Part shown: positions 13,324-32,004 of the stretch, in pieces
Layout of the letters: every line of letters begins with the position of its first letter
Position numbering within the stretch: the stretch's first letter is position 1
Source of the DNA: Solirubrobacterales bacterium
GTDB taxonomy: Bacteria > Actinomycetota > Thermoleophilia > Solirubrobacterales > 70-9
Reading direction: 5' to 3'
Assembly: GCA_040879985.1 (NCBI GenBank)
Contig: JBBDJH010000004.1
Span: forward strand, 14,115 to 78,114
DNA length: 64,000 bases
The notes under the pieces: model-generated
What the model saw: the letters and a program-made list of their open reading frames with translations, nothing else
What the model was told of the DNA's origin: nothing
The model's database searches: none
Position numbers and translations under genes: made by a program

Positions 13324-14256
13324 GTGCTCGAAGGATCGGGGACGAGGCTCGTTCGGCGGATTCCCGCAACGGCGGATCGCTCGCGGTTGCTCGGAGCGGC
13401 CCTCTCGTTCGGATTGGCGGCCGTTCTGCTCGGCGCCCCGGCCGCGTCGGCCAAATTCAGCGTCTTCCCGACCACCCTGGAGGCGCGGGCGAAGCCGGGC
13501 ACGGTCGCCTCCGGCGTCTTCAACGTGCGCATGGAAGGGGAATCCGCGCGCAGGTTCGTGGTCGGCGCGCAGGACCTCGTCCCCCAGCCCGACGGGTCGC
13601 TCGCCGTGGCGAGGCAAAGCGGCTCCCCGTTCTCGGCCTCCCGTTGGGTGTCGCTGACGCCGTCGCGGTTCCCCGGCCTGCCCAGCCGGGTGCAGCCGGT
13701 CGAGTACGCGGTCAGGGTCCCGCCCAGGGCCGAGCCGGGCGACCACCTGGCCTCACTCACGGTCACCCGCCTGCCCCGCGGCGGCGCCTCGACCACCGTG
13801 CCGGCGCAGGCCGTCTCCGTTCGCCTGCGGCTGCGGGTCGCGGGGCGGATCGAGCGCTCGGCTCGGGTCGCCGCGCTGGATGCGCCGAGGATCGCCGCCG
13901 GCAACCCTGTGAGCGTCGTGGCCGAGGTGGTCAATACGGGAAACGTGAGACTGGACTTCGACCGTGCGGCAAGCGGCTTGCTGACCATCCTCGACGGCTC
14001 CGAGCGCGAGGCGAGGCTGAGCTTCGCCGGGACGGTGTATCCGGGCCAGCGTCGTCCGTTCGAGCTCTCCTGGGACCAGGCCCCGCTCTTCGGCGACTTC
14101 CACGCGGTGGCGACGGTCGACGCCGGAAACGGCAAGCGGGTGCGGGACTCGGCTTCGATCCTCGTGCTTCCCTGGCGGCAGATCGGCGCCCTGCTCCTGA
14201 TCGCGCTGGCGGCGATCGTCCTCCTCGTCGGTCGCTCGCGGCGCCTCTACCCCTGA
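13324..14256 (+). CDS. Secreted two-Ig-like-domain surface protein with C-terminal TM anchor (DUF916/DUF3324-like architecture)
   Basis: Signal peptide ..LLGAPAASA, two beta-rich modules, and a C-terminal TM helix IGALLLIALAAIVLLVG plus RSRR. The family call rests on architecture only. Confidence 0.5.
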   Translation: MLEGSGTRLVRRIPATADRSRLLGAALSFGLAAVLLGAPAASAKFSVFPTTLEARAKPGTVASGVFNVRMEGESARRFVVGAQDLVPQPDGSLAVARQSGSPFSASRWVSLTPSRFPGLPSRVQPVEYAVRVPPRAEPGDHLASLTVTRLPRGGASTTVPAQAVSVRLRLRVAGRIERSARVAALDAPRIAAGNPVSVVAEVVNTGNVRLDFDRAASGLLTILDGSEREARLSFAGTVYPGQRRPFELSWDQAPLFGDFHAVATVDAGNGKRVRDSASILVLPWRQIGALLLIALAAIVLLVGRSRRLYP

Positions 14257-16303: not shown

Positions 16304-16328
16304 GAGAGAAGGATATCTGCCGCTGACA

Positions 16329-16455
16329 GTGGGTGGCGGGGCGTGTCCGGGCGGACGCGGCGTCCTGTTTTTCGCCCCGCCGACAACCTCGGACGGGTAA
16401 TTGCCCCCAGGCGAAAAACCCAGCGCCCGCCCGGACACCCCCCGCCGCCCACCAC
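16329..16455. repeat. Family-D nested-hairpin element, copy 1 (127 bp)
   Basis: Shares CGCGGCGTCCTGTTTTTCGCC .. AACCTCGG .. GGCGAAAAACCCAGCGCCCG with the copy at 30605-30709. Its outer arms GTGGGTGGCGGGGCGTGTCCGGGCGG / CCGCCCGGACACCCCCCGCCGCCCACCAC are palindromic. It lies between the TauE stop and the Rrf2 start. Confidence 0.85.
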
Positions 16456-28753: not shown

Positions 28754-29401
28754 TCAACGGCCTTCCGCGGCGCGGCTGGCGCGCAGCAGGCGCTCGATCC
28801 GGGCGCGCAGCTCGGTCTCGCCGAGTTTGCCGATCGAGGCGCTCTGCAGCGTGCCGCCGGGGTAGGCGTAGGCGAACGTCGGGCAGCCGCCGACGCGGTA
28901 GAGGCCGGCGACGGCGCCGTCGCGGTCGTAGCCGACCGGCATCGTCCAGCCGCGGTCGCGCACCAGGTGGCGAACCGTCTCGCGATCGTCGCGGATGTTC
29001 AGCGCGAGGAAGTTCACGCGTCCACGGTAGCGCGCGTGGACGCGGCTGACGACGTCCTGCTGCGCGGCACAGTCGCCGAACCAGAAAGAGATCGCCGCGG
29101 GGCGGTCGAAGAGGTCGCAGACGCGGATCGCGCCGCGCGTGCGCAGCCGGCAGGCCGGGGCGCGGCGGGCGTCCGCCGGGCAGGGCAGGGCCGCCGCCGA
29201 GCAGTCGTCCTGGGCGACGTTGGCGTCCCCTTCGAGCGGCCCGGTTGCGTCGGGAACGGCGAACTCGGGCAACGGCCAGCGCGGCGGCTGCTCGTCGAGG
29301 CCGAGCGTGCCGCCGCCACCGCCGGGAACGCCGTTGATCAGCGCGACGGCGAGGATCGCGGCGAAGAAGAGCCCGACCAGGATCGAGTAGCGGTCCCTCA
29401 C
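28754..29401 (-). CDS. Membrane-anchored thioredoxin-fold (TlpA/redoxin-like) protein with degenerate CxxC
   Basis: N-terminal TM helix, then a redoxin-like core AAISFWFGDCAAQQDV..NFLALNIRDD..GWTMPVGYDRDG..LYRVGGCPTFAYAYPGG. The CxxC position reads CAAQ. Confidence 0.55.
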   Translation of the reverse strand: MRDRYSILVGLFFAAILAVALINGVPGGGGGTLGLDEQPPRWPLPEFAVPDATGPLEGDANVAQDDCSAAALPCPADARRAPACRLRTRGAIRVCDLFDRPAAISFWFGDCAAQQDVVSRVHARYRGRVNFLALNIRDDRETVRHLVRDRGWTMPVGYDRDGAVAGLYRVGGCPTFAYAYPGGTLQSASIGKLGETELRARIERLLRASRAAEGR

Positions 29402-32004
29402 TCCGCCGGCCGCTTCCTGCGCAGGCCGAGGCCCTCGCCGCGGCCGAGGCGCTCGGCCAGGACCAGGGTGGCGGGCAGCGCCACCATCACACCGAGCAGC
29501 GCCACGGCGAGGTCGATCACGGTGACGAAACCGAAGTCGCGCAGCATCCGCACGTCGCTGGCGATCAGCACCGCAAAGCCGGCGATCGCGGTCACCCCGG
29601 AGGCGAGCACGGCCGCGCCGGTGCGCGCATAGGCCTGCCTCAACGCCGCACCGAGCTCCCGCCCGGCATGCCGCTCCTGGCGGAAGCGGGCGGCGAGGAT
29701 GACGCTGAACTCGGTCGCGATCGCGATCGTCAACGCCCCCAGCGCCGCCGACATCGGGTTGAGCGGGATGCGGGTCAGGAACAGCACCAGCGCCGCCCAG
29801 CCGGTCGCCATCACGATCGGAACCAGCGGCACCAGCGCCCGCGACCAGGAGCGGTAGACCGCCAGCAGGACCAGCGCCACCGCCAGCAACCCGGCCAGGG
29901 TCAGCAGGTAGCGGCTGTCGGACAGGTCCGAAGCCGCCGCAGCCGCGATCACCGGCAACCCGGCGAGCTCAACCTCCACCCCAGGCGGCGGGCCGCCCCG
30001 GGTCCCGGGCTCCCCCACCGCAGCCCGGATCCGCTCGATCAGGTCCTGCTGGTCCTCGAGCGACTGCGCCCTGATCCCGAACCCCAGCAAGGCCGTTCCG
30101 GCCGGCAGCTTGGTCTGCGGATCGACGGTCGCCAGCTGGCGCAGGTTGTAGGCGGGGATCTGGCGGAACGCCGCGCGGATGCCGCGCCCGGTCAGCGGGC
30201 CGCTGCTGAGCGGACCCGTCAAGCCGCCGCCGGTGACGAAATCCGACAGCGCCGGCCCGGGGCAGACTTCAGCTTCCTCACAACTCGGATTCGCCCCCTC
30301 AAACCCGCCGGCTTTCAGCGCCCGCCGCTTGAACCCGGCCATCCAGCGGATCGTCGCCGGGTCGGTCAGATCTGGAGCCTCCACCCGGACAGCAAGCTGC
30401 CCCGACACACCCGTCGCATCCTGCAGCTGATTCAGTTCCTTGACCGCATCGATGCTCTGCGGGGCCAACTTGCGAATATCGGTCTGCGTCTCGATCTGGG
30501 TACCGACTCCCCAGCCGATCACCGCCAGGGCCAACCCGACCGCCAGAACCCCCTGCGGCCGCGCCTGGGCCAAGCCCAGAACCCACTGCAACCAGGGCGG
30601 GAGTGACGGGTGCCCCGCAGCGGCGCGGCGTCCTGTTTTTCGCCGCGCAACCTCGGCGAGAGACCCAAACCTCCCGGCGAAAAACCCAGCGCCCGGAGGG
30701 GCACCCGTCGGTCCCGCCCGGCCCGAGCGCAGGCTGAGAGCCGCAAAGCCCGCGACGAAGGCCAGCGCGAAGGCGATCGCTATGCCGACGACCAGGAGTA
30801 GGCCGAAGCTGCGGACCATCGGCGTCGGTGAGAGCTGCAGGGCTACGAAGCCGGCGCCGGTGGCGAGGCAGGCGGTGGCGATTGCTGGGCCGCCGCCAGA
30901 CGCTGCAAGCCGGGCAGCCTCAGCTCCCGGGGATGCGCCGAGATTCACGGCCTCGTCGTAGCGCGCTTGCAGCTGGATCGCGTAGTCCACCGCCAGGCCG
31001 ATCAGGATCGGCAGGACGGCGATCGAGGCCATCGTCAGCGAGCCGCCGAGCAGCCCGAAGAGGCCGAAGGTCAGCGCCGCCGAGCAGAGCGCCAGCGCCA
31101 GCGGCAGCAGGCGCCAGCGCGAGCGGAAGACGAGCAGCAGGGCAGCTGCCATGACGACGAGGGCTACCCCGAGCAGGACGAGCAGGGCGTCCTTGAGCGC
31201 ATCGGTGACCGCCTCGACGACGACCGGGACGCCGGAGATCACGTAGCTGCCGCCGTGCAGCTCGAAGCAGCGCTCCGGCTCGCCTTTGAACTTGCAGGCT
31301 TTGCGGGCGACCGGGTCGCGCACGACCGTCTCGATCGTCGCCAGGGCGCGGCGACGCTCGGCCTCGCTGAGGCCGGGACGCAGGCGGAGGATGATCTGGG
31401 CCGAGTTGGAGTTCGGGAAGAGGTAGGCGAGGCGGGCCTTGGGGGTCCCGCGTGCGCGCTCGATGTCGAAGACGAGGGCGGCGAGGAAGTCCGGGTTGGA
31501 GAGGCTCGGCGCGCTGGTGATCCCGTACTGCGCGGCGATCTGGAGCAGCAGCTCGCGCAGTTTGTCGGGCGGGACGCTGGCGGCGAGCCGGCGCAGCTGG
31601 CGGTCGATCTGGATCACCGCCTCGTTGAGGAAGGTGGCCGGGCCGATCAGCGAGCGCACCGGGTCCTGTTCGGCCAGTTCGGTGCAGGGCCCCGGCAGCG
31701 CCCTCCCCCCCTCCGGCACCTTGCCCGAGAGGCACCCCTCGAGCCGCAGGAAGCGGCCCAGGTTTGCGGTCAGGATCAGCCGCTGCAGGTCGCCCCGGGC
31801 GAGGATGACGACGGGTTCTTCGCCGAATTCGCGCTTGACCTCTTCGGTCGCCCGGTAGCCGGGCGTATCGGAATCGACCAGCGTCTCGGTCGCGGCATCG
31901 GTCGGCAGCTGCGTGGCAACCGCCGCCGCCGCCACGGAGACGAGGGCCACGAGCGCGAGCAGCGCCCGCGCATGGCGCACCGACCATGCGGCTAGCGACG
32001 CCAT
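29398..32004 (-). CDS. MMPL/RND-superfamily membrane transporter
   Basis: 868 aa with two 6-TM bundles, each preceded by a large extracytoplasmic domain. Typical MMPL segments are ..SGVPVVVEAVTDALKDAL.. and ..GLAVDYAIQL.. / ..IAIATEFSVILAARF. Confidence 0.85.
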   Translation of the reverse strand: MASLAAWSVRHARALLALVALVSVAAAAVATQLPTDAATETLVDSDTPGYRATEEVKREFGEEPVVILARGDLQRLILTANLGRFLRLEGCLSGKVPEGGRALPGPCTELAEQDPVRSLIGPATFLNEAVIQIDRQLRRLAASVPPDKLRELLLQIAAQYGITSAPSLSNPDFLAALVFDIERARGTPKARLAYLFPNSNSAQIILRLRPGLSEAERRRALATIETVVRDPVARKACKFKGEPERCFELHGGSYVISGVPVVVEAVTDALKDALLVLLGVALVVMAAALLLVFRSRWRLLPLALALCSAALTFGLFGLLGGSLTMASIAVLPILIGLAVDYAIQLQARYDEAVNLGASPGAEAARLAASGGGPAIATACLATGAGFVALQLSPTPMVRSFGLLLVVGIAIAFALAFVAGFAALSLRSGRAGPTGAPPGAGFFAGRFGSLAEVARRKTGRRAAAGHPSLPPWLQWVLGLAQARPQGVLAVGLALAVIGWGVGTQIETQTDIRKLAPQSIDAVKELNQLQDATGVSGQLAVRVEAPDLTDPATIRWMAGFKRRALKAGGFEGANPSCEEAEVCPGPALSDFVTGGGLTGPLSSGPLTGRGIRAAFRQIPAYNLRQLATVDPQTKLPAGTALLGFGIRAQSLEDQQDLIERIRAAVGEPGTRGGPPPGVEVELAGLPVIAAAAASDLSDSRYLLTLAGLLAVALVLLAVYRSWSRALVPLVPIVMATGWAALVLFLTRIPLNPMSAALGALTIAIATEFSVILAARFRQERHAGRELGAALRQAYARTGAAVLASGVTAIAGFAVLIASDVRMLRDFGFVTVIDLAVALLGVMVALPATLVLAERLGRGEGLGLRRKRPAE
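30605..30709. repeat. Family-D nested-hairpin element, copy 2 (105 bp), in frame inside the MMPL CDS
   Basis: GACGGGTGCCCC..CGCGGCGTCCTGTTTTTCGCC..AACCTCGG..GGCGAAAAACCCAGCGCCCG..GGGGCACCCGTC. Translated as TGAPPGAGFFAGRFGSLAEVARRKTGRRAAAGHP in the inter-bundle cytoplasmic linker. Confidence 0.85.

Follow-up and report, generated by a model that had tools for sequence, protein, structure and literature searches.

The stretch of DNA analysed here (the window; 64,000 nucleotides (nt), positions 14,115 to 78,114 of the forward strand of contig JBBDJH010000004.1, assembly GCA_040879985.1) belongs to a Solirubrobacterales bacterium and contains a gene for an MMPL/HAE3-type RND exporter, whose open reading frame (ORF) carries a long palindromic element. 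A sister copy of the element lies in the spacer between an Rrf2 and a TauE gene of the same window. The relevant features are listed below, with the basis of each assignment in brackets.

29398..32004, minus strand: MMPL/HAE3-type RND exporter gene, 868 aa, intact ORF (ORF list, Pfam MMPL, AlphaFold2 model)
30595..30719, plus strand: complete palindromic element, about 125 nt, written in core orientation; the mRNA sense is its complement (extended arm complementarity, minimum free energy (MFE) hairpins)
30605..30616, plus strand: 5' perfect arm GACGGGTGCCCC (perfect complement of the 3' arm)
30625..30644, plus strand: conserved core on the left side, GCGGCGTCCTGTTTTTCGCC, which on the minus strand encodes part of ...RRKTGRR through the rare codons CGA AAA ACA GGA (family-wide conservation)
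30645..30675, plus strand: variable apical region, loop class '..CTCGGCGAGAG..' (alignment of 35 copies)
30676..30695, plus strand: conserved core on the right side, GGCGAAAAACCCAGCGCCCG, which on the minus strand encodes ..AGFFA.. (family-wide conservation)
30698..30709, plus strand: 3' perfect arm GGGGCACCCGTC (perfect complement of the 5' arm)
16318..16448, plus strand: sister copy belonging to this family, in the spacer between Rrf2 and TauE (common cores)

The exporter gene and its palindromic insert

An earlier note, made from the letters of this DNA, had placed the element within a stop-free MMPL ORF of 868 aa, and this is confirmed by a Pfam MMPL match (4.6e-44) that is split over two stretches. 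The closest solved relatives of the protein are MmpL4/5 and HpnN, and its homologues are annotated as HAE3/RND exporters. The AlphaFold2 model, calculated from 81 homologues, has a mean predicted local distance difference test score (pLDDT) of 77.9 and a predicted template modelling score of 0.72, and shows two helical bundles. The two Pfam MMPL stretches, the MmpL4/5 and HpnN matches and these bundles place the protein in the MMPL/HAE3 RND group. Full-length open orthologous frames were recovered from independent assemblies, indicating that the gene is not split.

The earlier note had delimited the element by two 12-nt arms and described it as exactly 105 nt, or 35 codons. The arms are indeed perfectly complementary, and a 105-nt unit exists between their outer ends. 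Pairing continues beyond them, however, joining gggcggga-gt-gacgggtgcccc (30595-30616) to ggggcacccgtc-gg-tcccgccc (30698-30719) with a 2-nt mismatch. Since the palindrome thus spans about 125 nt (30595-30719), which is not a multiple of three, and since the 105-nt unit begins at the third base of a codon, the figure of 35 codons is a property of the arms that were picked and not of the element. For the region's two strands the MFE is -85.1 and -92.4 kcal/mol, with z = -4.8 and -4.2, and none of 200 shuffles reaches such values. The 21-nt block CGCGGCGTCCTGTTTTTCGCC and the 20-nt block GGCGAAAAACCCAGCGCCCG are both shared with the copy near 16329-16455, as the note had observed; each occurs twice in the window, against 0.00-0.01 expected.

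The peptide TGAPPGAG...AAAGHP, attributed to the element in the same note, is present in the ORF as residues 433-466. Where orthologues lack a palindrome at this position (G016, G017, G019 and G022), the residues are missing from their proteins, and in three genomes of the same genus (G017, G019 and G022) the protein match jumps over query residues ~431-466. The inserted length itself cannot be measured directly, because no clean empty site exists for this copy.

The proposed position in a disordered linker between transmembrane helices (TM) 6 and 7 agrees with the predicted structure. Three segments of the model have a pLDDT below 50; that of residues 428-465 greatly exceeds the others in length and is alone in lying between the protein's two halves, following a helix at 395-424 (predicted TM6) and preceding helices at 470-481 and 483-501. 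In the standard RND/MmpL topology the loop following TM6 is cytoplasmic, which is in line with the seven Arg/Lys residues of the insert. With this linker position and predicted disorder the insert may be compatible with the fold, and it is presumably translated into a linker peptide.

The repeat family and its copies in other genes

The genome is a metagenome-assembled genome (MAG) of 2.15 Mb in 23 contigs, with 70% G+C, a completeness of 93% and N gaps. A search with both cores detected 35 paired copies, which form a dispersed family of palindromes without an ORF of their own. Copy size across the family is about 125-150 nt, and the hairpins, taken with 55-nt flanks, have folding energies of about -67 to -124 kcal/mol. 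In the alignment of the 35 copies, the near-invariant cores GCGTCCTGTTTTTCGCC and GGCGAAAAACCCAGC form an A5/T5 helix beside an asymmetric internal loop, and the apex of 30-37 nt falls into a few loop classes. The outer arms are G-rich on the 5' side and C-rich on the 3' side; they vary from copy to copy, yet remain self-complementary within each. The best pair of copies is 83% identical and the median is 69%, giving no sign of a recent burst. One copy upstream of RecG (contig C1 41582-41704) adjoins an N10 gap followed by a poly-C run, and such hairpins may break or confuse assembly.

Within the order, 9 of the 12 genomes sampled from the genus to which this DNA belongs have the exact-core pattern, with 1-26 copies each, and it recurs in two sister genera, while none of 213 sampled genomes from other families of the Solirubrobacterales contains it. 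More than 113 matches were obtained in a collection of species-representative genomes; all of those listed are MAGs of uncultured Solirubrobacterales or Actinomycetota, and many carry soil-survey isolate names. A known RNA family was considered as the identity of the element and rejected, as Rfam gave no match at gathering score in the window and only chance-level hits for the element itself (E 0.8-4.5). A literature search found no published description of such repeats in this bacterial group. The family is undescribed so far and was found only in one uncultured genus of the Solirubrobacterales and the genera closest to it.

Copies inside genes were recognised by the strong signature of this genome, in which G+C is higher at the third codon position than at the first, and higher at the first than at the second (GC3>GC1>GC2); the same frame was required on both sides of a copy. 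This places 13-14 of the 35 copies within ORFs that show the coding signature, in one frame, before and after the insert. The genome-wide count of gene-internal copies that the earlier note had called for thus yields in-frame insertions in unrelated conserved genes, and Pfam domains flank the insert in eight of the nine host proteins scanned: RibD, PyrK|PyrD, DnaX, a UvrD-PD-(D/E)XK helicase, FbiC, FtsZ, a GT4 glycosyltransferase and an E2 acyltransferase. The insert occupies the linker between the lipoyl and E3-binding domains in the E2 acyltransferase and an N-terminal extension in FtsZ. Several membrane proteins are further hosts, one of them with two copies: in this 839-aa protein (contig C13 74007-76526) the copies have opposite orientations and each stands beside a hydrophobic segment. 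At the PyrK-PyrD junction (contig C2 105339-107192), a copy fills the space between the two genes and a single continuous frame of 617 aa results, so that these dihydroorotate dehydrogenase subunits may be translationally fused by the repeat.

The element is read in all six frames, giving peptides such as AGFFA..RKTGRR, LGFSP..GEKQDAA and RRPVFRP..GEKPSAS. By a stricter criterion applied to all fetched genomes, 25 of 157 copies lie in coding sequences (CDS). As many as 28 of the 157 are free of stops in all six frames, compared with about 1.0 expected from shuffles. Judged from the reading frames, at least a dozen ordinary genes of this genome would be translated with an extra peptide supplied by the family.

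History and conservation of the copies

The age of the MMPL copy was assessed in an unbiased sample of the genus, comprising 19 genomes with an orthologue of the exporter gene. This sample was used in place of an earlier count in which 121 of 121 homologues carried the insert, which was set aside as biased by the query region; the set of 81 homologues is likewise biased to carriers, the search having been scored on residues 300-600. The element is present in the window's orientation in ten of the 19 orthologues and in the opposite orientation in two, where it encodes the peptide GVLFFA...RRKTQRAEG, as confirmed at the DNA level. One orthologue has only the 3' half, two have a different hairpin, GGGTGGCG...CGACAGGACCC, and four have no hairpin and a shorter linker.

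A gene tree that leaves out the insert columns and takes its root from another genus groups each element-less gene with carriers as its sisters (L018 beside L008, 100/100; L017 beside L010 and L011, 97/94), and L018 retains remnants of the arms. The most parsimonious history would be a single old gain followed by at least three losses, and the losses indicate that the insert peptide is dispensable. The linkers of outgroup genera are unrelated in sequence and similar in length; examined as possible decayed hairpins, one is marginal (L016, z = -2.3) and another is not a hairpin (L020). Given such linkers in the outgroups, the element may have replaced part of an older linker and not simply been added.

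The site has been rewritten repeatedly since. On the tree of 81 proteins, orientation changes at least 15 times, and eight or nine of these changes are forced by well-supported branches. Simple inversion in situ was rejected as the source of the two orientations: in close forward/reverse pairs the flanks are 89-94% identical, while the elements fail to align and differ in arms and loop class, that is, beyond polarity. This indicates that the interior was replaced and not merely flipped. In one gene, P0049, three stacked arm-like segments lie upstream of the present element. The second hairpin family, GGGTGGCG...CGACAGGACCC, measures down to 67 nt and occupies the MMPL site in G012 (L014) and G006 (L019). 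In the G006 orthologue (G006:C4 6087-10325), moreover, the frame shifts by 1 nt within the TM6 region, shortly upstream of the linker, which is either a sequencing error or the mark of a pseudogene. Nine copies of the family studied here (family D) sit inside GGGTGGCG...CGACAGGACCC arms, and such arms also stand alone in the genome (contigs C14 ~7150 and C20 25249), an arrangement that suggests nesting or replacement of the apex.

Comparison of other sites with relatives points to gains as well. The intergenic copy at 16318-16448 is missing from the orthologous Rrf2-TauE spacer of eight genomes of the same genus, in which this spacer measures only ~20-50 nt; in one of them the flanks are 87-89% identical to those of the window. 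The copy is consequently best understood as a lineage-specific gain, and the empty site itself contains sequence similar to its outermost 3' arm, CCCACC. The copy in the C-terminal domain of RibD (contig C1 46632-47861; L205 18560-18950) represents a net gain of ~41 codons over the nearest relatives G329, G010 and G325, and further species have, at this position, the element in a different orientation or frame, other hairpins, or nothing. At a further, intergenic site (contig C1 144914-145089), the corresponding sequence of G329 (G329:C4, L238) has the same outer arms, GGGGTGTCCCTCC/GGAGGGACACCCC, around a different interior without the D cores. From this alignment, the apex of a persisting hairpin appears to have been exchanged.

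Conservation was measured over 17 orthologous copies with DNA, 13 of them forward. The block GCTGGGTTTTTCGCC is the same in all 13 forward copies and GGCGAAAAACAGGACGCCGC in eight of them, the other five differing by one to three changes; the left core (30625..30644) is the same or nearly the same, with 0-3 mismatches, in all 17. These blocks contain the codons TTT, CGA, AAA, ACA and GGA, the usage of which in these genes is 21%, 6%, 20%, 3% and 11%, respectively, while four-fold degenerate sites of the same genes have 50-63% identity to the window's gene. Intergenic copies, and those read in a different frame, keep the same core nucleotides, which argues that the constraint acts on the nucleic acid and not on the peptide. 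RNAalifold finds 35 pairs with 95.6% of cells paired, and 12 of the 22 pairs of the outer stem have changes on both sides. These pairing and covariation values are reached by none of 500 shuffles, and slid controls come nowhere near them. Together, the invariant cores suggest either continuing constraint or homogenisation.

The two strands of the element differ. Across the 157 copies, G.U pairs in the outer arms are ~1.8 times commoner on the element's minus strand (279 against 157). Among 38 copies whose flanking coding sequences are co-directional, this strand is the sense strand in 27 (p = 0.014), as it is in the commoner orientation at the MMPL site. The asymmetry hints at a single-stranded intermediate or an effect at the RNA level. 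As a test of selection on RNA versus DNA it does not decide, for it is tied more closely to the strand of the element itself than to the way transcription runs.

Origin of the insert and known palindromic repeats

The insert is probably an ancient copy of a repeat resembling the Rickettsia palindromic elements (RPEs), tolerated because it is open, frame-neutral and placed in a disordered cytoplasmic linker, and reshaped by palindrome processes at the DNA level. An RPE-like reading had been proposed in the earlier note, and it is borne out by the orthologues, the AlphaFold2 model, the intact gene and the copies elsewhere in the genome, with two qualifications: the insertion is ancient and common to most of the genus, not private to this genome, and its delimitation at 105 nt is arbitrary. 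In the proposed sequence of events, an ancestor of the genus would have gained a copy in the DNA for the cytoplasmic TM6-TM7 linker of the exporter. This copy would have persisted because it is stop-free, preserves the frame and is read as ~34 Gly/Pro/Arg-rich residues in a disordered, dispensable loop, presumably neutral for the transporter. Its interior would then have been swapped, with either orientation as the outcome; the most likely routes are ectopic gene conversion from copies elsewhere and re-insertion into the hairpin already at the site, since palindromic arms offer homology both ways. Homogenisation would have held the arms complementary, and several lineages would have deleted the element. 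The repeat itself is presumably selfish.

Several observations weigh against this account. No recent transposition was seen, and even the most similar copies of the family (83%, median 69%) are far from identical. Flanking direct repeats, expected from target-site duplication, are no commoner than in controls, given that copy boundaries are fuzzy and those derived from MFE overshoot into GC-rich flanks; the empty-site comparisons at the Rrf2-TauE and RibD sites give no clear duplication either. Genes of the Y1/RAYT, IS110 and IS605-OrfB types (PF01797, PF01548, PF01385) were not found in the 93% complete genome, whereas control genomes gave matches to PF01797. Matches to DUF559, DDE_Tnp_1 (two) and rve (two) are present (PF04480, PF01609, PF00665), none of them adjoining a copy. 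Translation through a hairpin of about -90 kcal/mol is an assumption, and the all-carrier set of 121 homologues is biased, both search words and scores having come from residues 300-600. Finally, the invariance of the cores over a time that saturates synonymous sites is hard to reconcile with purely neutral junk, so that the structure may serve the host.

This last point leads to the main, though less likely, alternative, namely that the hairpin is a DNA or RNA element selected by the host. Its cores and stem would then serve for binding or processing, for instance as a site for an RNA-binding or nucleoid protein, as a determinant of mRNA stability or as a pause in translation between the transporter halves, with the peptide as a by-product. 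Cores that keep four consecutive rare A-ending codons where four-fold sites are near saturation would be expected of such an element, as would a stem maintained by compensatory changes. The genome holds no near-identical copies, which makes it harder to ascribe the conservation simply to recent copying, and the strand asymmetry, together with the majority orientation at the MMPL site, points the same way. A host function is, however, difficult to reconcile with the four element-less orthologues, which retain open frames of full or near-full length, and with the occurrence of both orientations at one site. The copies have no common context: some lie within genes unrelated to one another, others at gene ends or in spacers. 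Close relatives lack both the intergenic sister copy and the copy in RibD, and no Rfam family matches. The covariation could moreover be mimicked by template switching or gene conversion.

A somewhat less probable possibility, which is a variant of the tolerated-repeat account, is a mobile element that is still active and targets hairpin apices. Changes at the MMPL site would then stem from one invasion after another and not from gene conversion or descent, and the outer stems peculiar to each copy would be arms left by older elements. The stacked segments of P0049, the exchanged interior within persisting arms at C1:144969 in G329, and the nine D copies within GGGTGGCG...CGACAGGACCC arms, which are also found by themselves, both in this genome and, in G006 and G012, at the MMPL site, are all as this variant predicts, and so are the lineage-specific gains of the window's intergenic copy and the RibD copy. 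Against it, neither near-identical copies nor an associated transposase candidate nor a target-site duplication was detected, and the boundaries of the element cannot be fixed. A related and speculative idea, put forward tentatively, is that the cores, with their A5/T5 helix and asymmetric internal loop, are the recognition site of strand-specific machinery that rewrites the apices of resident hairpins in either orientation without the known transposase families. If true, the repeat would be a hairpin-targeting, self-renewing element, able to live indefinitely in coding sequence, and not a decaying relic.

Selection on the peptide is largely refuted and very improbable. It would make the 34 residues a functional module, such as a positively charged juxtamembrane motif FFA...RRKTGRR, to which the palindrome is incidental. 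G440, F441, F442, A443, R455, K456 and R459 are indeed invariant or nearly so in the 81 homologues, and an Arg/Lys-rich segment is expected on the cytoplasmic side. The conserved residues are, however, exactly those of the cores that are kept equally in intergenic and other-frame copies, rare codons are fixed among them, and the reverse orientation yields a different peptide, GVLFFA...RRKTQRAEG. The segment is also predicted to be disordered, is gone from four orthologues of the genus and is absent in outgroup genera. Mis-assembly, or a gene truly split or dead at the site, is the least likely explanation of all: although the MAG consists of 23 contigs with N gaps, another copy adjoins an N-run and poly-C, and G006 has its frameshift just upstream, the same open architecture recurs in orthologues from genomes and metagenome contigs that were assembled independently and include complete chromosomes, and the coding GC3 pattern is continuous in frame on both sides.

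Among known systems, the closest behaviour is that of the Rickettsia elements RPE-1 to RPE-10 (Ogata et al. 2000, 2002), to the extent that they are summarised in PMC10969869. In that summary they share with the family described here a dispersed, gene-less palindrome of ~100-150 bp, a large share of copies in frame in unrelated housekeeping genes, insertion into loops or linkers that are read through, and insertions common to related species. By the same summary they differ in host, an AT-rich obligate intracellular alphaproteobacterium as opposed to a free-living soil actinobacterial lineage with 70% G+C, and in having one conserved peptide per RPE family, where the present repeat uses all six frames. 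The repeated turnover of orientation and interior at a fixed site is a further difference from the elements as summarised there. The repeat would therefore not be filed as an RPE family member, for the likeness is one of behaviour and the taxon differs.

Intragenic repetitive extragenic palindromes (REPs) with GTAG and CGTC tags lie inside known genes, among them genes of DNA replication and repair, and encode 20-30 extra residues; those of the CGTC class resemble the present family also in having no dedicated transposase (Di Nocera et al. 2013, PMC3733652). REPs are 20-40 bp long, with stems of 5-13 bp, a terminal tetranucleotide tag and a short tail, whereas the element is three to four times longer, nested and untagged. 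A place among REPs or REPINs mobilised by RAYT is likewise not supported, given a size of ~125-150 nt and a genome in which PF01797 was not found. Bacterial transposable elements of the miniature inverted-repeat type (MITEs), such as Coxiella QMITE1/2, ERIC and the Correia elements, are small, non-coding and hairpin-forming, and some copies extend or interrupt ORFs in frame, often with basic peptides (PMC5896051). What defines a MITE is its target-site duplications together with inverted repeats at its ends that are related to an insertion sequence (IS); neither was found for the element, with regard to inverted repeats common to an autonomous IS in a partial test of transposase families in the 93% complete genome. 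Its arms, in addition, vary among copies while the interior cores are conserved.

Quasipalindrome correction by template switching during replication, well known from E. coli genetics, is a mutational mechanism and not an element family, a process at the DNA level that restores the complementarity of imperfect inverted repeats and could yield apparent compensatory changes as well as spacer inversions; it may have acted here. The likeness of the repeat to RPEs, intragenic REPs and in-frame MITE fusions would be one of behaviour.

In-frame protein-coding palindromes have long been presented as a peculiarity of Rickettsia. They now appear on a comparable scale in free-living, high-G+C soil actinobacteria with small genomes, known only from metagenomes, where at least a dozen conserved genes of a 2.15-Mb genome are affected. 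For the annotation of Solirubrobacterales MAGs, repeat-encoded low-complexity linkers and repeat-fused ORFs, such as PyrK-PyrD, are to be expected. What the MMPL copy adds to the known systems is an unusually well-sampled single site, a natural time series in which one codon-level position can be followed over many species through retention, change of orientation, replacement of the interior and clean loss. The site can accordingly be used to study how palindromic repeats persist in genes, whether their cores are kept by selection or by gene conversion, and what share they have in the evolution of protein linkers.

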